Below, piece by piece: positions 6,281-53,084 of a stretch of DNA of 64,000 nt. The stretch covers positions 2,099 through 66,098 of the forward strand of contig JAGMCT010000001.1 in NCBI GenBank assembly GCA_023129075.1, read 5' to 3'. Source of the DNA: Candidatus Micrarchaeota archaeon. Its GTDB lineage: Archaea; Micrarchaeota; Micrarchaeia; Anstonellales; Bilamarchaeaceae. The stretch's first letter is position 1. Each line of letters opens with the position of its first letter. The notes under the pieces were generated by a model, which did no database searches, had not been told where the DNA came from, and saw nothing but the letters and a program-made list of their open reading frames with translations. The position numbers and the translations under genes were made by a program.

Positions 6281-6341
6281 AAGGAGTATTCATTGAATTA
6301 GAATTAAAAAAGTTCCTACTTTCTAGAAACCAGAATACAAT

Positions 6342-6440
6342 GTTAAAAATTCAAGGAACTCAGAAGCTACTAAGCTGGTGCAAGAAGCGTGCGGAGTAGC
6401 GTATTGATAAGATCATGATTACGACGTAAGTGAGCATTAA
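6342..6440 (+). repeat. Intergenic repeat family R, copy 1
   Basis: A/T box TTAAAAA, 9 nt, CTCAGAAGCTAC, 22 nt, GGAGTAGC, then ATGATTACGAC..AAGTG..ATTAA. Same layout as copies 2 and 3. Confidence 0.8.
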
Positions 6441-6499
6441 AACTATTGAGGTTAATAAGATTATTAAACTTCTGAGATTCAATTCAGTTATATGAACCG

Positions 6500-6925
6500 C
6501 TATAACTTCAACAATGCTTCGATCTTTTTTACAAATTCTTCCGCAAATGAAACAATTCTCTGTGCCTCGTCGTCGGTTGGATAGTAATCGCCAGCATACA
6601 TTGTTTTATGCCTTTTGTCTCTGTACTGATCGAATAAATCAATATTAGAAATTCCCACTTCTTTTGAGTATTTTGTTTCTAAGTATCTTGCTACACATGC
6701 ATGACTTTTCTCTCTAAATCCATCTCTGAAAAGTACTGCTCTTGCCGCATCCAACATGGAAGTATATGCAGATAAGACTGCAGAATTAGGGGAGTTTATC
6801 TTCAGCGCTTTTTTAGCTTCTTCAAGGAGAACCCTGGCTTTTTTCAGTTGTTCTTCAGACTGCCTTTTTGATGGCGGAATCTTTCTGAGCAGTCCTTTTT
6901 CGATACAATCATTAAAATCAATCAC
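6500..6925 (-). CDS. HEPN domain protein (toxin partner of HEPN-MNT pair)
   Basis: 141-aa helical protein with FRDGFREKSHACVARYL and YRDKRHKTMYAG segments; 4-bp overlap with the upstream nucleotidyltransferase gene. Confidence 0.7.
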   Translation of the reverse strand: MIDFNDCIEKGLLRKIPPSKRQSEEQLKKARVLLEEAKKALKINSPNSAVLSAYTSMLDAARAVLFRDGFREKSHACVARYLETKYSKEVGISNIDLFDQYRDKRHKTMYAGDYYPTDDEAQRIVSFAEEFVKKIEALLKL

Positions 6926-7464
6926 AAACCTTCACCCCATAGGATTATTCCATTATAAAGCGAGAAATAAAATGCATCGCTTTTTTCTCTAAAATGTTTC
7001 AATCTTTCAGGCGTAGCAATTGTTAAATCAACCGGAACACCTAATTTCTTTTCGAGCTTCTTTCTCGTTTTTGCCAGTTCAAGATCTGCTGGTTCATTAT
7101 CCATTTTAACCCAAATATCTAAATCAGCTCCCTCTAGATTAGTTCCGTTTGCCCAGCTCCCGTATATACCAATACTCTTTGATTTTGGAAGGTGATTCTT
7201 CAAAATAGCTACCAATCTTTTTTCTTGTATCCGTTTAATATTAAATAGTAATCTAAGAGTTTTTGTTATGGGAATTTCCTGCAACCTATTTTGATCAACC
7301 AGTCTTTCTTTTCTTAAAATAGTTACATATTTGTGAATCTGCCCTACACTTAATCTCAGCTCTCGGGCCAGTTTGTTCATGTTGATTTCATTGGAAGGAT
7401 TCTTCAATAAATATCTTAGAATTTTCTCTCTTTCTTCAGTGGATAATAGCGTATGTATATTCAT
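6922..7464 (-). CDS. Minimal nucleotidyltransferase (MNT) with N-terminal winged-HTH
   Basis: IGIYGSWANGTNLEGADLDIWV (GS..D.D nucleotidyltransferase signature); N-terminal NKLARELRLSVGQIHKYVTIL HTH-like segment. Confidence 0.85.
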   Translation of the reverse strand: MNIHTLLSTEEREKILRYLLKNPSNEINMNKLARELRLSVGQIHKYVTILRKERLVDQNRLQEIPITKTLRLLFNIKRIQEKRLVAILKNHLPKSKSIGIYGSWANGTNLEGADLDIWVKMDNEPADLELAKTRKKLEKKLGVPVDLTIATPERLKHFREKSDAFYFSLYNGIILWGEGL

Positions 7465-7503
7465 ATGGTGTGAATATGCTATTCATGATTTATAAATGTT
7501 TCG

Positions 7504-7518
7504 TTCACATTTTGTGAA
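7504..7518. promoter_or_regulatory. Candidate operator TTCACA-ttt-TGTGAA upstream of the MNT-HEPN operon
   Basis: 6-bp inverted arms at 7504-7509 and 7513-7518. A third TGTGAA lies at 7469-7474. The TTTATAAA box at 7489-7496 is ~28 nt from the MNT start codon. Confidence 0.35.
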
Positions 7519-7532
7519 TAAGTAAAGGGCGA

Positions 7533-7629
7533 TTTTAAATGTTAGTGGCTCAGAAGCTACTGTGACAATCAACATGATTGATGGAGTAACATGATTTTGA
7601 AAAGTGATTACGACATAAGTGGATATTGA
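7533..7629 (+). repeat. Intergenic repeat family R, copy 2
   Basis: TTTTAAA, 9 nt, CTCAGAAGCTAC, 22 nt, GGAGTAAC ATGATTTTGAAAAGT GATTACGAC AT AAGTG. Confidence 0.8.
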
Positions 7630-7687
7630 GAATACTAACGTATTGGTTTATATATTGCGCTTGTAAAGTAATATTGAGGTGAGTTAA

Positions 7688-7966
7688 ATGACTGAAGAAG
7701 AAAAGAAAGAAGAACTTAAGGTAAAAAAGAAAAAGGAAACAACAGAACCCTTTGTGATGGATAAGATAAAAGAAGGGATAATAAAAGCAGGGGGAACAGC
7801 AGAGCTTGCTGGAAAGGTTGCGCTGGATGTGGCGACATGGGCAAAGGAAACGGCAAAAGAGGGCGTTATAACAACAGTTGAGATACAAAAGAAAACAGTT
7901 GAGTTGCTTGCAGAGACGAATAAAGATATCTCAATAGCATTCCAGGAATTTGTGAAAAAGGTCTAA
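7688..7966 (+). CDS. Stand-alone ATP-cone domain protein with lysine/glutamate-rich N-terminus
   Basis: 92 aa; VMDKIKEGIIKAGGTAELAGKVALDV...GVITTVEIQKKTVELL matches the ATP-cone helix pattern. Confidence 0.55.
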   Translation: MTEEEKKEELKVKKKKETTEPFVMDKIKEGIIKAGGTAELAGKVALDVATWAKETAKEGVITTVEIQKKTVELLAETNKDISIAFQEFVKKV

Positions 7967-8053
7967 ATGACCAGATGATGGTGGGTGCTTTTCACCCCCC
8001 ATCTTCCTATTTTCCTGTGCACCAGATAAGTTTTTGTTCTCATTTACTCGGTC

Positions 8054-8149
8054 TTTTTATAATAATGACTCAGAAGCTACATTGACAATCAAGTTGTTTA
8101 TCGGAGTAGCATGATTTTAGAAAGCAGTTACACATTAATGGAATATTAA
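8054..8149 (+). repeat. Intergenic repeat family R, copy 3
   Basis: TTTTTATA, 7 nt, CTCAGAAGCTAC, 22 nt, GGAGTAGC ATGATTTTAGAAAGCA GTTACAC AT TAATG. Confidence 0.8.
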
Positions 8150-8177
8150 CTTTAATGATGTTATTAACTCGATTAGC

Positions 8178-8747
8178 CTAATCCCTCATAAAACCAAATC
8201 TCTTATTTTTTGCAGTCATCTTGATGAAATGCTCAAGGCTACTCCGAAAAGCATCATTTCCCTGAAGCTTTCGGTGTTCGATATAGGCAATCCGTATGCG
8301 TTTGTAGTGGTCTGGAAGCCTTTGAAAGTTTTTCCATGCGTCTGCGTTCTTCTTTATTTCGAAGAGGATTTCACTTGGGATCTTGAATTTTGTGGTATCT
8401 GAACCGGGGTTGAACACATGTGACACTGCAGCGAGACCTACAGGAGTTATCTTTTTGTTTGCTATCAGCTTTCTTATCCGCTCCAGGTTTAGTTGGGAAA
8501 GAATGCTTGTCCGCCTCCTCGGCGAATATCTTTGTGCGTATTTATCTTCGTCTATTCTTTTCACTATGCTATCTATCCAACCAAAGCAAAGTGCCTCTTC
8601 AACCGCGTCGTTGTAAGGTATACGTGCCGTTCCAGTGTGTTTCTTTGGGTAGATGAGCCAAATTTCCTTTTCTTTTCTATGATTTTTCGCAAGCCATGCG
8701 CGCCATGTTTTTCTTTTTGATACATAAAGAGTTTTTCCTATTTTCAT
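8178..8747 (-). CDS. YdeI/OmpD-associated family protein
   Basis: KEIWLIYPKKHTG...PYNDAVEEALCFGWIDSIVKRID... typical of the YdeI/OmdA family. Confidence 0.7.
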   Translation of the reverse strand: MKIGKTLYVSKRKTWRAWLAKNHRKEKEIWLIYPKKHTGTARIPYNDAVEEALCFGWIDSIVKRIDEDKYAQRYSPRRRTSILSQLNLERIRKLIANKKITPVGLAAVSHVFNPGSDTTKFKIPSEILFEIKKNADAWKNFQRLPDHYKRIRIAYIEHRKLQGNDAFRSSLEHFIKMTAKNKRFGFMRD

Positions 8748-8768
8748 AAACTACTTTCTTGAATTTAG

Positions 8769-8875
8769 TTTTAAAGTATTATGGCTCAGAAGCTACTCCG
8801 TTTGTCATTGCTTGCGCTCCATCTGGGACGGTCTCATCATAGCTCTATGTAATTGTGTGTGTAAGTGCTTATAAA
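8769..8875 (+). repeat. Intergenic repeat family R, copy 4 (divergent after the 5' box)
   Basis: TTTTAAA, 9 nt, CTCAGAAGCTAC conserved. The remainder diverges, but GTAAGTGCTTATAAA resembles the 3' part of copies 1-2. Confidence 0.6.
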
Positions 8876-8896
8876 TCTATGGTTTGAAATTTTATT

Positions 8897-9928: not shown

Positions 9929-10064
9929 CTGAGATTTCCGAGAGAATTATCTGAAGGATAATCTGATCTTGGAAATCCGAAGTCTTGGAAACCGGAGGTT
10001 TCTGAGAGAATTACCCGGAGGGTAATCTGAGATTTCTGAGAGAATTATCCAAAGGATAATCTAA
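9929..10064 (+). repeat. Three tandem ~35-nt units, each with a dyad (ATTATC-N5-GATAAT, ATTACCC-N3-GGGTAAT, ATTATCC-N3-GGATAAT), plus an internal TCTTGGAAA(t)CCG(a)AG doublet
   Basis: Read directly. Units at 9929-9966, 9998-10030 and 10031-10064 share TTTC(C/T)GAGAGAATTA...TAATCT(G/A)A. One stem position covaries (T:A versus C:G). Confidence 0.8.
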
Positions 10065-10124
10065 TGTCCCCCTCCGCGGTTCGGAATGAAAAGGTTTATT
10101 AATATTTTTAAGTGAAAGGGACAT

Positions 10125-10370
10125 ATGGCGTACATAGAGACATTGTTATCCAGCTGGCTTGAGATAATGAAATCATCAGGGACAACCATTTCTGTTCTCC
10201 TTATAATATTGGGCGGAATCATGTACGGGATTGCACAACTACAGCCCGGGGAAACCAGAGGGAAATGGCAGAATATTTCAATAGGAGTATTCCTTGGAGG
10301 AGTAATAATTGCTGCAATAATAGGCGCAGCAAGTGTTATTCAGGAGATTTCAAGCAACCTGCTGACGTGA
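10125..10370 (+). CDS. Small two-TM hairpin protein, VirB2/TrbC/CedA1-like pilin candidate
   Basis: 81 aa. Hydrophobic segments TISVLLIILGGIMYGIA and ISIGVFLGGVIIAAIIGAASVI are joined by the charged loop QLQPGETRGKWQN. First gene of the operon. Confidence 0.55.
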   Translation: MAYIETLLSSWLEIMKSSGTTISVLLIILGGIMYGIAQLQPGETRGKWQNISIGVFLGGVIIAAIIGAASVIQEISSNLLT

Positions 10371-10374
10371 GAGA

Positions 10375-11310
10375 ATGGCGGTAGACCTCACCATTGCATC
10401 AACAGTAGTAACCCTTTCCATAATCTTATCTGGTATACTGCTTGGGGTGGGAAAGACTATAGGCTCTAAAAAAATAGAATTTTTTGGAGCAGAAGAACTG
10501 CTTCAGTCTGTGATAAATGCAGCCCTTGTAGGAGCATATGCAGGAATAGTTGAAATAGCCACTAATTTGAGCAATGAAATAGCAGAGGTAAGCCAATGTA
10601 TGGAAGGGGATGCTTTGGAAAATCTTGCGTGCACATTTCATCAGGTATCTCTAGAGTTGTTCAAGGTTATTGGGGGGCTTTTTGTGCTAACCAATATGGT
10701 GGGGTATTATCAGACATTAAACCTTGAATTTGCGTCTTTTTCAATACAGCCGTTGGTGAACCTTTCGTCAGTTGCAGGTATTTTTGGACTGCAGTTAATT
10801 ATAATGCAACAGCTGCTTACAATTAGTGAATTTAATTATCAACTGATAAATTTCTTTGGACCTCAATTATTGAGTTTGTTCCTTCCGCTTGGGCTGGTAT
10901 TCAGGTCTTTTTTTCCGACAAGGAGACTAGGGGGTTTCCTTATTGCACTTGCAGTGGGAATCTATTTATTTTATCCGTTTATGGTATTAATATTTCCAAC
11001 CCCTATACCTATGCTTGAGCAAACAGGAAACATTATAGAGAATATAACGAATAACAGTAATTATGCTACTATTCCGATAATAGACCTGAACGGAAGTGGA
11101 GTAATCGGGGAAAAAATAGATAATCTTACAAAAGGGGACTTTACAGGGGATTTGGCAGTGAGTATTGAATCAATCAGCCAGAGCATTTCTTCAGCAACAC
11201 TTTATGTATTATTTGCACCGTTGTTTGGACTGCTGATTACTATCATATTTATAAAAGAGATAACAGACATACTTGGCGGGGAATTCTTCTTCGCGGTGGG
11301 GAACTTATGA
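10375..11310 (+). CDS. Polytopic membrane protein, VirB6/TrbL/CedA-like candidate
   Basis: 311 aa, ~6 hydrophobic helices with an N-glycosylation-sequon-rich loop (NITNNSNYAT); 4 nt after the pilin-like gene. Confidence 0.5.
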   Translation: MAVDLTIASTVVTLSIILSGILLGVGKTIGSKKIEFFGAEELLQSVINAALVGAYAGIVEIATNLSNEIAEVSQCMEGDALENLACTFHQVSLELFKVIGGLFVLTNMVGYYQTLNLEFASFSIQPLVNLSSVAGIFGLQLIIMQQLLTISEFNYQLINFFGPQLLSLFLPLGLVFRSFFPTRRLGGFLIALAVGIYLFYPFMVLIFPTPIPMLEQTGNIIENITNNSNYATIPIIDLNGSGVIGEKIDNLTKGDFTGDLAVSIESISQSISSATLYVLFAPLFGLLITIIFIKEITDILGGEFFFAVGNL

Positions 11311-12086
11311 TATGGAACAGGTTGATTACTATTCTTGCACTTATTGGAGGGGTGATTTCTGTATTAATCGCTGCAGTTACCGGAAATGTTATACTGACAA
11401 TCCCTTCTGCATTCTTTTTTGCGCTGAGCCTGCTTATATGGAAGTACGGATATATTTTGATGCCTTACTTCACAACTGCGGCAGGGATAATAGAGGTGAG
11501 AAGCGGATATGAAATTCCTCCTGCAAGAGACTACATAATCAAGAAAGCTGAAAACGGTTATTATGCAACGAAATTCCTTGAGATAAAATATTATGACAGC
11601 ATTGTTGACAAGAGCGATGTAGAAAAGGCTTATAGGGTGGAATCATTTGAAAAGGCTCTTGCTTCTCTGAATAGTGTAGTGAAGATATCTTTATTGGTTT
11701 CTACAATAGACCTTTCAAAGCATATAGAAGAGATAAAAACAAGAAGGGGTTCTGCTGAAGCCAAACGGGCAAAGATGGCCTCAAACAACGCGGATGCAGT
11801 AAAACTAGACAGAGAAATAGCTATGTATGACAGACAACTGGACAGGATTACTCATGGAGAAAGACCGTTGGAGGTTACATCCTTTGCATCAACAACTGCT
11901 TTTGGAGTGACGAAAGAAGAGGCATCCTCAAGAGTAAGGAGGCAGTCAAAGGAGATAAAAACCATATTATCCAGTACGCTTGGTGCAGATGTAAAGGAGC
12001 TGGCGGATGAGGATATGCTTAGATGTTTTGAATGGGATAGATTTATTCCAGCAGACCCTGAACAGTTAAGGGATGAGGTATTCTAA
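11307..12086 (+). CDS. Membrane-anchored protein (two N-terminal TM helices + soluble domain), candidate VirB3 + VirB4 N-terminal-domain equivalent
   Basis: 259 aa; overlaps the upstream gene by 4 bp and the downstream ATPase by 1 bp. Confidence 0.45.
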   Translation: MIWNRLITILALIGGVISVLIAAVTGNVILTIPSAFFFALSLLIWKYGYILMPYFTTAAGIIEVRSGYEIPPARDYIIKKAENGYYATKFLEIKYYDSIVDKSDVEKAYRVESFEKALASLNSVVKISLLVSTIDLSKHIEEIKTRRGSAEAKRAKMASNNADAVKLDREIAMYDRQLDRITHGERPLEVTSFASTTAFGVTKEEASSRVRRQSKEIKTILSSTLGADVKELADEDMLRCFEWDRFIPADPEQLRDEVF

Positions 12087-13519
12087 TGTATCTCAAAAAA
12101 TATCTTACAAGTGATATAGCGAGAAGGTTTTTCTTAGTGCATCCTCCGGAACCAAGAAAAGACCTTTTAATTTCAGGAGTAACGGAAGGGGTGTATTTAG
12201 GGAAAACCAGGTGGCTTAATGTACCTGTATTCTGGAACTACAATAAACTAATCAACCCGCACATGGCAATAGTAGGTATTACAGGAAGCGGTAAGAGTTA
12301 CCTTGTAAAAACCTTTATTACAAGAGCGGCGCTGGTATGGAATACCAATGCACTAATCCTGGATTGGGTCGGGGAATACAACGAATGGGTGAGACAGGCT
12401 GGAGGAATGGTAATCCATCTTGGAAAAGAGCACCTGAACCTGCTTGACCTGGGGGGGATGAGCAAGGGGGAGAGAATAAAACAGATAATGTCTTCACTTG
12501 ACATGATGCTTGAGTTAAAGGATTTCCCTGAAGAAAAATATGACCTGGAGGGGGCCCTGGAAAAGGTTTATAAAAAATATAAGAATCCAACGCTCGTGGA
12601 GGTTGAAAAAAGTCTGGAAAAGGATGGAAAGAAAAGGGCAGCGAGACTGCTGAAAGGATATATCGGAGAAGGAAATGATTTCTTTGCAAAGCATTCAACC
12701 CTTAAACTGGACAAATTGATTGATTCCGGACTGGTGTGTATAGACCTGCACAGTCTGCCTAGTGAAGAGATGAGAAGTCTGGCCGGTCTCACTATTCTAC
12801 AGTTTATAAAAGAAAAGATGAGAAAAGAAGAGCTTGGGAAGGAAAAGGGGATAAAGCTCTTTGTTGTGGTTGATGAGGCATGGAAGATAGCAAGGGATGA
12901 CAGGAGCGATGTGATAACTATAGTAAGAGAAGGAAGAAAGTATAATTTTGGAATAATTGTTGCAAGCCAGAATCCAACAGACATAAACAAGGCAATAATC
13001 AGCAATGTTGGAACAACGTTTGTACTAAGACTTATTTTAAGGGAATATAAGGATTATATGAAAGATTCTCTGAATTATTCGGGCTATATTGATGAGGAGA
13101 TAAGCAGATTTGGAGTGGGGGATGCAGCAATAAATATGATATTTGCAGAAAGGGCAACCGAATCCCTTACGTTTTTACTTGATAAAATAGACGGCGAGGA
13201 ACCGCTGTTTGTTTATAAAATAAGAGGTGGTGGAATGGATGTTGAAGTAGAAAGAGAGCAGTTTTCACGAATGTTATTTGAATTAGGGTTAAGTGACGAG
13301 CAGATAAACATGGTGAAGCTTGAGTTTGAAAAGAATGACGGGGTAATAAAGGCAACAACCTTTGTATCAATGCTTGAGAGGTTTGGTTATGCAAGGTCTT
13401 CTATAATTACGTTCCTGAGACAGATGGGGGTTGAGGAGAGAAATATTGTTGAAATTTTTTCCCTTATAAGAAAAAGGAAGGCGTCTAAAGGACTTGTAGA
13501 CCTTGTGCTGGAGGAATGA
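12086..13519 (+). CDS. VirB4/TrbE/HerA-superfamily P-loop ATPase (CedB-like candidate)
   Basis: Walker A VGITGSGKSYL, Walker B LFVVVDEAWK, REGRKYNFGIIVASQNPTDI motif. Confidence 0.85.
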   Translation: MYLKKYLTSDIARRFFLVHPPEPRKDLLISGVTEGVYLGKTRWLNVPVFWNYNKLINPHMAIVGITGSGKSYLVKTFITRAALVWNTNALILDWVGEYNEWVRQAGGMVIHLGKEHLNLLDLGGMSKGERIKQIMSSLDMMLELKDFPEEKYDLEGALEKVYKKYKNPTLVEVEKSLEKDGKKRAARLLKGYIGEGNDFFAKHSTLKLDKLIDSGLVCIDLHSLPSEEMRSLAGLTILQFIKEKMRKEELGKEKGIKLFVVVDEAWKIARDDRSDVITIVREGRKYNFGIIVASQNPTDINKAIISNVGTTFVLRLILREYKDYMKDSLNYSGYIDEEISRFGVGDAAINMIFAERATESLTFLLDKIDGEEPLFVYKIRGGGMDVEVEREQFSRMLFELGLSDEQINMVKLEFEKNDGVIKATTFVSMLERFGYARSSIITFLRQMGVEERNIVEIFSLIRKRKASKGLVDLVLEE

Positions 13520-13523
13520 GAGG

Positions 13524-14219
13524 ATGGAGGAAATAGTAAGGATAAGCGCAAAGAGAAAGAAGAGTTTGAAAAGACTGCTTCCTCTGCTTGGGCAGATGGG
13601 ATTCACAAAAATAGAGTATACAAAAGACAATATAATAATAGAAAAAGTTGAAAGTGAAGACCTGAAAGGAAAGCCCTATCTTTACTATCGTGTAGAGATG
13701 ATGGACAATGGAATAAAGGTAGTATATTCCATTCCTTCGCTGAAAACAAAGCTTGCAAGAACTACAGATATAGGAATGCTCATTTTGAACCTTACAAAAC
13801 TCCTGGATGATTATTATGATGTACACCCTTCTGCAATGTATTCATTCTTCCTTTCACTGCTTATAACCATGTCAAAGATGATGGACAAGGACAAGGTGGA
13901 ATTGGCATCAGAACTGGAGGGGCTGAAAATAAAACATGCAACATTAGAAAAAAGATATACTGAATTGGTGCACTCCAGCGAACAGAATGCAAGGATATTG
14001 ATGGAATGTGAAAGAAAAAAGAACGAGCAGAAGGAAAGAATAGCAAAGCTGGAGGGAATAAGCGATGATGCGCTCATGGAAAGCATATTTGGGTGGCTGA
14101 AAACACACAACGGCGAGATAGATATCTATGAATTCTCCAAGATGTACGGTCTTCCAATAGGAAGAATTGAGTATGGGCTGGAGATTCTGCTTATGCAGGG
14201 CTATATAAAAAAGAGGTAA
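13524..14219 (+). CDS. Coiled-coil protein with C-terminal winged-HTH-like domain
   Basis: ATG at 13524 (the track ORF begins at a TTG at 13503); central heptad-rich region; C-terminal IDIYEFSKMYGLPIGRIEYGLEILLMQGYIKKR. Confidence 0.6.
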   Translation: MEEIVRISAKRKKSLKRLLPLLGQMGFTKIEYTKDNIIIEKVESEDLKGKPYLYYRVEMMDNGIKVVYSIPSLKTKLARTTDIGMLILNLTKLLDDYYDVHPSAMYSFFLSLLITMSKMMDKDKVELASELEGLKIKHATLEKRYTELVHSSEQNARILMECERKKNEQKERIAKLEGISDDALMESIFGWLKTHNGEIDIYEFSKMYGLPIGRIEYGLEILLMQGYIKKR

Positions 14220-30323: not shown

Positions 30324-30341
30324 ATGTAACTATAGTTACAT
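30324..30341. repeat. 18-bp perfect palindrome ATGTAACTATAGTTACAT, copy 1
   Basis: Exact match. Lies between the divergent starts of the M50 protease (30288) and the CorA-like gene (30391). Confidence 0.95.
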
Positions 30342-37402: not shown

Positions 37403-37420
37403 ATGTAACTATAGTTACAT
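37403..37420. repeat. 18-bp perfect palindrome, copy 2
   Basis: Exact match. Ends 1 nt before the ATG at 37422 and lies ~90 nt upstream of the divergent Hef start. Confidence 0.95.
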
Positions 37421-39263: not shown

Positions 39264-39281
39264 ATGTAACTATAGTTACAT
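39264..39281. repeat. 18-bp perfect palindrome, copy 3
   Basis: Exact match. Lies 7 nt past the purF stop and 38 nt upstream of the pheT start. Confidence 0.95.
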
Positions 39282-45770: not shown

Positions 45771-46202
45771 TTACAACCATCTTTTTAGAACAATATATGT
45801 TTTGGTATCTCTTATCCTGCCCAAACTTCTCATGATTCCTATCTTCTCATCTATATCTTCTAGATCCTCCCCCTCAATTACCACACATCCATCATATTCC
45901 CCGTAAATATCGTAAATCCGTTCTGCAATTCCGAGTTCCTTAATTGCCTTGAGTGCGAGTTTATCGCTCCCCTTTGACCTCATCATTACGATAGCTGCTC
46001 TTTTTCTAGTTGGCGTTTCTATAGTGAATCTCTTTATATCTCCCTTTCTGAGCAGCATTTCTATTCTTTTTCTTATCGCCCCTTCGCTTAGTCCAACTTC
46101 TGCCGCAATCTCGGTGTTTTTCATCCGGCTGTTTTCTTTAAGAAGGTCTATTATCCTTTTATTGGTTCTGTCAAGAGATGAGACCATATTTTCGGTTCTC
46201 AT
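45771..46202 (-). CDS. lrp: Lrp/AsnC family transcriptional regulator
   Basis: N-terminal HTH NKRIIDLLKENSRMKNTEIAAEVGLSEGAIRKRIEML plus a C-terminal RAM-like domain; stop is 9 nt before the purL start. Confidence 0.88.
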   Translation of the reverse strand: MRTENMVSSLDRTNKRIIDLLKENSRMKNTEIAAEVGLSEGAIRKRIEMLLRKGDIKRFTIETPTRKRAAIVMMRSKGSDKLALKAIKELGIAERIYDIYGEYDGCVVIEGEDLEDIDEKIGIMRSLGRIRDTKTYIVLKRWL

Positions 46203-46239: not shown

Positions 46240-46257
46240 ATGTAACTATAGTTACAT
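46240..46257. repeat. 18-bp perfect palindrome, copy 4
   Basis: Exact match. Lies 37 nt upstream of the lrp start and 14 nt past the ugd stop. Confidence 0.95.
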
Positions 46258-50019: not shown

Positions 50020-50037
50020 ATGTAACTATAGTTACAT
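50020..50037. repeat. 18-bp perfect palindrome, copy 5
   Basis: Exact match. Lies between convergent 3' ends, 5 nt after the 49055-50014 stop and directly abutting the fen stop codon. Confidence 0.95.
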
Positions 50038-53011: not shown

Positions 53012-53084
53012 GCCACGGTAGCTCAGTTGGGAGAGCACTCCGCTGAAGACGGAGGGGTCGTCGGTTCAAATCCGGCTCGTGGCA
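53012..53084 (+). tRNA. tRNA-Phe (GAA)
   Basis: Hand-folded cloverleaf: acceptor GCCACGG/TCGTGGC (one G:U), anticodon arm CTCCG-CTGAAGA-CGGAG, T arm GTCGG-TTCAAAT-CCGGC. No intron and no encoded CCA. Confidence 0.93.

Follow-up and report, generated by a model that had tools for sequence, protein, structure and literature searches.

The window analysed here, 64,000 nucleotides (nt) of a Candidatus Micrarchaeota contig (JAGMCT010000001.1, positions 2,099 to 66,098, assembly GCA_023129075.1), contains three small gene modules separated by four copies of a repeat. We read this region as an array of three inserted cassettes, anchored where a gene resembling those of C/D-box small RNAs (sRNAs) has its 3' end, an interpretation to which we give about even odds (a probability of roughly 0.5). 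Among the observations behind it, all four repeats share a 12-mer that is identical to the 3' end of the candidate sRNA, and one of the three modules, which encodes an orphan ATP-cone protein, recurs in other genomes with its homology ending at the repeats, in one case beside a second, different sRNA-like gene. The gene order across the region is GT2, HEPN and HTH-MNT, ATP-cone, YdeI/OmdA and epimerase.

Four co-oriented repeats share one 12-mer

The 12-mer (CTCAGAAGCTAC) occurs exactly four times in the 64 kb, at 6359, 7549, 8069 and 8785, always on the plus strand; the chance expectation for any one 12-mer in the window is ~0.008. One copy lies in each of the intergenic spacers at 6281-6499, 7465-7687, 7967-8177 and 8748-8896, bearing out an initial annotation of this DNA, made from the letters alone, which had reported the same plus-strand element in every spacer between 6281 and 8896. 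The A/T boxes that it placed 7-9 nt from the 12-mer are also found as described (TTAAAAA at 6343, TTTTAAA at 7533, TTTTTATA at 8054 and TTTTAAA at 8769). In copies 1-3 the 12-mer is followed by exactly 22 nt, GGAGTA(G/A)C and a partly conserved tail, precisely as had been stated. Identity between copies 2 and 3 is 71% over 94 nt; copy 1 has its first 29 nt and TGATTACGAC...tail in common with the others, and copy 4 has ~29 nt only, agreeing with the earlier remark that it diverges past its 5' part. The left arm is most deviant in copy 1, and the right arm is common to copies 1-3. A profile search with nhmmer for further copies, which the initial annotation had proposed, returned none in the window, the 10 kb upstream or the 8.5 kb downstream (~84 kb in all).

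Junction element copy 1 extends over 6342-6452 on the plus strand (A/T box 6343-6349, core 6359-6370, CGGAGTAGC at 6392-6400, tail to ~6452), copy 2 over 7533-7640 (A/T box 7533-7540, core 7549-7560, TGGAGTAAC at 7582-7590, tail to 7640) and copy 3 over 8053-8161 (A/T box 8054-8061, core 8069-8080, inverted sRNA segment CGGAGTAGC at 8102-8110, tail to ~8161). All three contain the end of the candidate sRNA described below, without its C box, and the adjoining sRNA segment CGGAGUAGC is present inverted 22 nt away, giving a GCTAC/GTAGC hairpin. Because the arm holds this inverted segment (CGGAGTAGC), core and arm together can form a hairpin of 35 nt. The pairing of GGAGTA(G/A)C with GCTAC suggested earlier is indeed possible in all five full elements, as an outer stem of 5-6 bp in which 83% of cells are paired. 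In copies 2 and 3, a C'-like box (UUGAUUG, minus strand) is kept at the correct spacing of 11-12 nt; in copy 3 it lies within the 22-nt segment. An inverted partial core (CTTCTGAG, the reverse complement of CTCAGAAG) also occurs at 6473-6480, ~110 nt downstream of copy 1, which is therefore the only copy bracketed by an 8-bp inverted repeat.

A candidate C/D-box sRNA gene at copy 4

Copy 4 coincides with a candidate C/D-box sRNA gene at 8785-8846 on the minus strand, proposed from boxes read in the sequence, a box-and-spacing scan and weak Rfam matches. In the predicted transcript, a C box (AUGAUGA, 8840-8834) is followed by a 12-nt D' guide (GACCGUCCCAGA, 8833-8822), a D' box (UGGA, 8821-8818), a 9-nt loop, a C' box (AUGACAA, 8808-8802), a 12-nt D guide (ACGGAGUAGCUU, 8801-8790) and a D box (CUGA, 8789-8786), with a final G at 8785. 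This order (AUGAUGA-12-UGGA-9-AUGACAA-12-CUGA) is the canonical archaeal C/D-box layout of a methylation-guide-like RNA, with degenerate D' and C' boxes. The invariant 12-mer at 8785-8796 on the plus strand is the reverse complement of the candidate's last 12 nt, which comprise 7 nt of the D guide (GUAGCUU), the D box CUGA and the final G.

A strict box-and-spacing scanner returned this candidate as its sole match on both strands of the 64 kb, compared with 0.25 matches in shuffled windows, and found no C/D candidate in a further 20 kb. A local Rfam scan gave eight weak matches at copy 4, all to C/D-box families and all on the minus strand. A TATA box that can be read on either strand (TTATAAAT/TTTATAAG, 8869-8876) lies ~23 nt upstream of the predicted sRNA 5' end on the minus strand, and ~21 nt upstream of the leaderless epimerase ATG (8897) on the plus strand. 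As one explanation of the repeats, the initial annotation had offered four paralogous RNA genes on the plus strand. This is not supported; the sole RNA-gene-like unit is the candidate on the opposite strand at copy 4, and copies 1-3 repeat its last 12 nt only. Plus-strand C/D or H/ACA RNAs were dropped as candidates since their boxes are absent, and so were fragments of transfer RNAs (tRNAs), the sole tRNA being tRNA-Phe at 53012. Our literature search found no paper linking Micrarchaeota with fibrillarin.

The ATP-cone module in other genomes

Five comparator contigs (L091-L095) were reached through the 90% cluster of the ATP-cone protein. The ATP-cone payload (window 7641-8041) has 90-92% nucleotide identity to all five, and the homology breaks off at the repeat edges, where copy 2 ends and shortly before copy 3 begins. 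The module sits among different neighbour genes in these contigs; in L091, it lies between an arsenic-type methyltransferase and phosphatase pair and a CorA gene. Its guanine-cytosine (GC) content is 39-42% (39% in the window) versus 50-57% in the L091 flanks and 51% in the L094 neighbour gene. Independent assemblies are concordant, L091 with L092 and L094 with L095. On these alignments, the ATP-cone module is a discrete unit that has evidently spread horizontally.

L091 shows a second association between this cassette and an sRNA-like end. The sole C/D match on this contig (2275-2219, minus strand; GUGAUGA-12-CCGA-11-GUGAGGA-12-CUGA) has a textbook sRNA layout, abuts the ATP-cone module, and matches Rfam sR1/sR2 in a local search (E ~1e-3). 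The last 16 nt of this predicted sRNA (TGCATCAGACCGTCCG on the plus strand) have a second copy across the module, so that two copies bracket it, and the distal repeat runs on into CUGA boxes (D'/D) at sRNA-like spacing. In L094 and L095, the same 76-nt arm and core as in L091 follow the ATP-cone module, ahead of a different gene. Two independent sRNA-like genes with different guides thus carry the same ATP-cone cassette at their 3' ends, within direct repeats of that end, and we therefore read the repeats as copies of an attachment site.

The closest comparison comes from L093 and L079, which derive from one sample and whose core genes are 93% identical to those of the window. In L093, the ATP-cone gene lies between an element A (GTCAGAAGCTAC at 205) and an element B (exact 12-mer at 953). 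Element A, a mosaic of copies 1 and 2 of the window, belongs to the copy-1 subtype; B is nearest to copy 2 (83% over 46 nt). The sequences beyond A and B differ from the window, so the comparison with relatives that had been suggested at the outset reveals 12-mer elements around the ATP-cone gene, next to different adjacent genes. In L079, an AbiE toxin-antitoxin module and, after it, a degenerate remnant of the element stand where the window has other content. The loci of 58%-identity relatives (L080-L082) are without the element. An exact-pattern scan for CTCAGAAGCTAC-N(18-26)-GGAGTA in GTDB genomes, JGI metagenomes and IMG/VR gave single matches only, extending 13-18 nt; a double match in one further sequence (L056) was rejected, as it consists of paralogous phage coding sequences.

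We made two further observations on these contigs. Downstream of the gene, a segment of 40-65 nt is inverted between the otherwise 90%-identical ATP-cone modules of L091 (2071-2135) and L094 (357-421); this may be a small invertible segment or the outcome of an inverted-repeat-mediated rearrangement. The D' guide region of the candidate sRNA (window 8826-8838, minus-strand GAUGAGACCGUCC) contains GACCGUCC, which is complementary to GGACGGUC at the end of the guide in the L091-type sRNA; this sRNA represents the other repeat family (CATCAGACCGTCC in L091, L093 and L094). A 13-mer search allowing up to three mismatches gave eight matches in the window, one of them inside copy 4. The complementarity may be due to chance (p ~0.01) or may be a sign that the two site families are related.

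Cassette payloads and promoters

The modules named in the initial annotation (a HEPN-MNT pair, an orphan ATP-cone protein and a YdeI-like protein, delimited by the repeats) agree with the open reading frames (ORFs) and their domains. The cassette 1 payload, which adjoins the sRNA (8162-8768, minus strand), holds a YdeI/OmdA-like gene (8178-8747) with a leaderless promoter whose TATA box is the A/T box of copy 4 (8769-8776). The cassette 2 payload (7641-8041, plus strand) holds the orphan ATP-cone gene (7688-7966), preceded by its own TATA box (7647-7655) and a Shine-Dalgarno sequence. The cassette 3 payload (6453-7532, minus strand) holds the HEPN toxin (6500-6925) and HTH-MNT antitoxin (6922-7464) genes, with their own TATA box (7489-7497) and palindromic operators. 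The cassettes thus have their own TATA promoters and mixed gene orientation. Promoters in this genome have TATA boxes of the TTTTAAA(T) type (TTTTAAA/TTTATAA), 22-24 nt before mostly leaderless start codons.

The array sits in a strain-specific glycosylation gene cluster. Among 15 billion proteins, there were no relatives at 90% identity or above for HEPN, MNT, YdeI, GT2, epimerase or the genes further upstream. For HEPN, MNT, YdeI and GT2, this is consistent with accessory, strain-specific content. The closest homologues of GT2 and of the epimerase N-terminus have 50-57% identity, and no syntenic comparator was found through these genes. The plasmid and phage databases contained nothing similar besides one YdeI gene.

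A possible insertion mechanism

Read on the minus strand, the region would begin with the intact sRNA and continue with the YdeI cassette, the ATP-cone cassette (its gene inverted), the HTH-MNT/HEPN cassette and the chromosomal GT2 gene. In this orientation, each cassette would start with its own TATA box, followed by its gene or genes, and end with a ~90-bp arm and the 12-bp core. A recombinase encoded elsewhere would join the cassette-borne site to the chromosomal sRNA end; the cassette site (arm and core) would correspond to attC or attP, and the sRNA end to attI or attB. New cassettes would then stack beside the sRNA, in the way known from integrons and from tandem integration at tRNA genes. 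An intact sRNA at one end, with a partial core and arm at each of the distal junctions, is what repeated site-specific insertion at one site would be expected to leave. The arms also fit tandem integration, with right arms common to copies 1-3, a right arm in copy 4 that is the sRNA body, and a deviant left arm in copy 1. We infer that the sRNA is functional, that a recombinase acts on these sites and that all three modules moved by this route; our confidence is moderate in the layout and low in the enzyme.

The array may further represent an undescribed integron-like gene-capture platform in DPANN archaea (Micrarchaeota), with the 3' end of a C/D sRNA as its att site, cassette sites derived from the sRNA, a trans-acting recombinase outside the array, and promoter-bearing mini-cassettes moved between genomes of very different GC content. 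We put this wider proposal forward tentatively, as the odds run somewhat against it.

Several results weigh against insertion at the sRNA end. The search for a recombinase proposed in the initial annotation was negative; no recombinase or Phage_integrase domain was present in the window ORFs, or in the Pfam annotation of the 10 kb upstream and 8.5 kb downstream. The cassette inserts themselves are integrase-free, encoding HEPN/MNT, ATP-cone and YdeI proteins only. Neither an empty site nor an excised circle was observed. Single-strand folding of the copies, also proposed at the outset, gave no fold better than those of shuffled sequences (z-scores -2.2 to +1.7), and the hairpin stem shows no covariation.

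The sRNA itself is another weak point. The D' and C' boxes of the copy-4 candidate are weak, and its Rfam scores are 8.6-12.4 bits against gathering cut-offs of 37-70 bits, which is weak negative evidence because the C/D families in Rfam are guide-specific. When compared with the organism's own 23S ribosomal RNA (rRNA; L098 6353-3396), the D guide matches at 10/12 at position 2459 (AAGCUACCCCGG; shuffle p = 0.15) and the D' guide at 9.5/12 at position 2269, in the P loop (shuffle p = 0.33). The top sites predicted on the E. coli, Halomicrobium and own 23S rRNA coincide in domain V, with scores not above chance.

The junctions raise a further difficulty. Between the window and L093, the elements flanking the orthologous ATP-cone gene are mosaic and 70-83% identical, compared with 92% for the payload. 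As the junction elements are more diverged than the payload, the sites are not simply travelling with the cassette. Diverged, mosaic junctions fit either recombination within the sites or a looser model in which sRNA-derived repeats serve as recombination substrates. The ATP-cone payload is also bounded by different cores in different genomes.

Alternative explanations

The alternative that survives best holds that the repeats are decayed sRNA genes, or sRNA-derived repeats like miniature inverted-repeat transposable elements (MITEs), which spread locally while ordinary or illegitimate recombination shuffled the modules, with no dedicated recombinase. We consider this unlikely. Such repeats would account for the mosaic nature of element A and the faster divergence of junctions than payloads, for the D'/D boxes at sRNA-like spacing into which the left repeat of L091 continues, for the C'-like UGAU box that copies 2, 3 and B keep 11-12 nt before CUGA, and for the segment inverted between L091 and L094. 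There is also a precedent, since MITE-like C/D-sRNA elements are known in Pyrobaculum calidifontis; they number ~15 dispersed copies, have conserved flanking inverted repeats and delimit no gene cassettes (PMC6009581). Those elements resemble ours in being C/D-sRNA-derived repeats with decayed internal boxes in unstable, non-syntenic regions. Here, however, there are just four copies, all local and co-oriented, none dispersed in ~84 kb, and they consist of the sRNA 3' end only plus an unrelated arm. Terminal inverted repeats or target duplications around single elements were not found either, apart from a weak 8-nt inverted match in copies 1 and 2. An exact core of 12-16 bp in arms of 70-80% identity is too short for efficient homologous recombination and is more like a selected crossover site.

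A reading to which we give distinctly less credence is that the repeats are four plus-strand transcription units, each with a TATA box, a conserved 12-mer close to the promoter that may be an operator, and either a short RNA or a gene for a 12-codon peptide. The A/T boxes do match the TATA consensus of this genome, TTTTAAA(T), and the predicted start falls 2-4 nt after the 12-mer in 4/4 copies; the 12-mer also lies in an imperfect 16-bp palindrome. However, the distance of the A/T box is not fixed in L093, the plus-strand unit has no Rfam match, and of the two strands only the minus accommodates the one G-to-A substitution in the stem, as a G.U pair, the plus strand having a C.A mismatch there. 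As for the peptide, GGAG, 4 nt, ATG, an intact 12-codon ORF and the same stop are seen in copies 2, 3 and element A of L093 (MILKSDYDISGY, MILESSYTLMEY and MNLKSGYDVEFY), but the ORF is frameshifted in copy 1 and absent from B and copy 4. Its substitutions show no third-position excess, being distributed over codon positions as ~4:5:4 between copies 2 and 3 and 3:5:2 between copy 2 and A, and the peptide gene was dropped for this lack of codon-position bias. Plus-strand units would also leave unexplained both the breaks in ATP-cone homology and the identity of the 12-mer with the sRNA 3' end.

It is improbable that a transposase- or casposase-like integrase with a preference for sRNA gene ends generated the 12-16-bp direct repeats as target-site duplications. 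In favour of this, their length lies within the range of casposon target duplications, and the repeats around one and the same payload differ from genome to genome. Conserved arms of ~76-90 bp, in contrast, stand on one side of the core only and are common to different payloads (in copies 1-3, and for the L091 arm in L094), and no terminal inverted repeats, transposase or Cas1 were found.

Recombination of attC sites by an IntI-type tyrosine recombinase, in a canonical integron or in an integrase-free attC cluster (CALIN), is largely refuted. In its favour, the layout is array-like with toxin-antitoxin and unknown-function genes, the inverted repeat GCTAC...GTAGC surrounds a variable centre, and integrons have been reported in archaeal metagenome-assembled genomes (PMC9668308), but a regular-expression search of 6281-8896 gave 0 RYYYAAC/GTTRRRY (R''/R') pairs 50-150 nt apart on either strand and no single box inside any repeat, and no integrase was found. 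Of the initial annotation's proposal of a cassette array or other recombination-built array, the accessory array is supported, given a mobile ATP-cone unit whose homology ends at the repeats; the canonical integron is not, as no attC boxes, no integrase in ~84 kb and no significant fold were found, and the cassettes have their own promoters and mixed orientation. Repeats of a diversity-generating retroelement were also dropped, the repeats being intergenic and no reverse transcriptase seen, as was an array like clustered regularly interspaced short palindromic repeats, the units here being 0.5-1.2 kb.

Comparison with known systems

Insertion at an sRNA end would share several traits with integrons: small single-function cassettes stacked beside a fixed anchor with their sites facing one way, an inverted repeat around a variable centre in the cassette sites, a richness in toxin-antitoxin and unknown genes, and a cassette common to unrelated genomes. 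Unlike in integrons, the array has no RYYYAAC/GTTRRRY boxes and no IntI nearby, it is anchored on a C/D-box sRNA-like gene, at the 3' end, its cassettes bear promoters and take either orientation, and its hairpin spans ~35 nt only.

Archaeal integrases of the SSV, pTN3 and SNJ2 types are examples of elements that target the 3' ends of tRNA, transfer-messenger RNA (tmRNA) or small RNA genes; a phage att site in the small RNA gene ffs (PMC12540744) is another. The region shares with integrative elements of this kind a direct repeat that is the 3' end of a small RNA gene, tandem stacking at one site, and an intact gene at one end with partial copies at the distal junctions. In contrast to them, the target here would be a C/D-box sRNA, and the inserts are non-autonomous, measure 0.4-1.1 kb and encode no integrase.

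The pdif modules of Acinetobacter plasmids are small modules flanked by XerC/XerD sites of 28 bp (11-6-11) in alternating orientation. They too are often toxin-antitoxin modules with short recombination sites found in many contexts, moved by a host recombinase acting in trans, as we propose here. The sites described here differ in being co-oriented, derived from an sRNA and provided with long arms.

No paper returned by the literature search mentions C/D-box sRNAs along with attachment sites or integrases, and neither sRNA nor snoRNA occurs as a term in a review of archaeal tyrosine recombinases. Little is understood of how DPANN archaea, with their tiny genomes and reliance on hosts, acquire accessory and defence genes. 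If our interpretation is correct, it offers a concrete mechanism that can be searched for, namely C/D sRNA ends followed by direct repeats. C/D sRNA genes would join tRNA and tmRNA genes as integration targets, and integron-style gene capture would have arisen with a different site architecture. The ~0.65-kb ATP-cone cassette, 90% identical in genomes whose GC content is 38% and >50%, directly attests to recent exchange, and provides a handle for finding the recombinase.

Other features of the window and its surroundings

Three repeats of ~39 nt (CTGAGATTTCYGAGAGAATTAYC...GRTAATCTGA) lie at 9929-10065, between the epimerase gene and a gene for an 81-amino-acid (aa) protein, and each forms a hairpin (z = -2.7). 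They contain TTCTGAG, a 7-mer that also occurs in the reverse complement of the 12-mer. Since L079 has an AbiEi/AbiEii toxin-antitoxin module at that spot, we regard 9929-10065 as a second variable junction. The variable region adjoins an operon (10125-14219) that is conserved across Micrarchaeota, including L080-L082. It encodes membrane proteins of 81 and 311 aa, a 259-aa protein, a HerA/VirB4/TraG-like ATPase (DUF87, AAA_10) and a 238-aa protein, and is similar to DNA transfer systems of the Ced or type-IV-like kind.

A perfect 18-bp palindrome (ATGTAACTATAGTTACAT) is found in five exact copies (0 expected), at 30324-30341, 37403-37420, 39264-39281, 46240-46257 and 50020-50037. Each copy lies in a promoter region, with M50 peptidase/CorA, PheRS-beta, purF, an AsnC-type regulator and FEN1 nearby. 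The palindrome is probably the operator of a local regulon, perhaps under the AsnC/Lrp-type regulator encoded at 45771-46202.

The 23S rRNA gene (L098 3396-6353; 2386 bits with the archaeal large-subunit model) lies ~2.1-5.1 kb past the right end of the window. Neither 16S nor 5S rRNA genes adjoin it within the 10 kb read; small unknown genes and a ParE toxin pair flank it. Upstream of the window, at a distance of 4-9 kb, a GAPDH-like (Gp_dh) and prenyltransferase gene pair occurs twice (L075 13974-15172 and 17175-18862). The first prenyltransferase copy is shortened to 67 aa, and a carbamoyltransferase gene stands between the two pairs; the doubling is either a local duplication or an assembly artefact.

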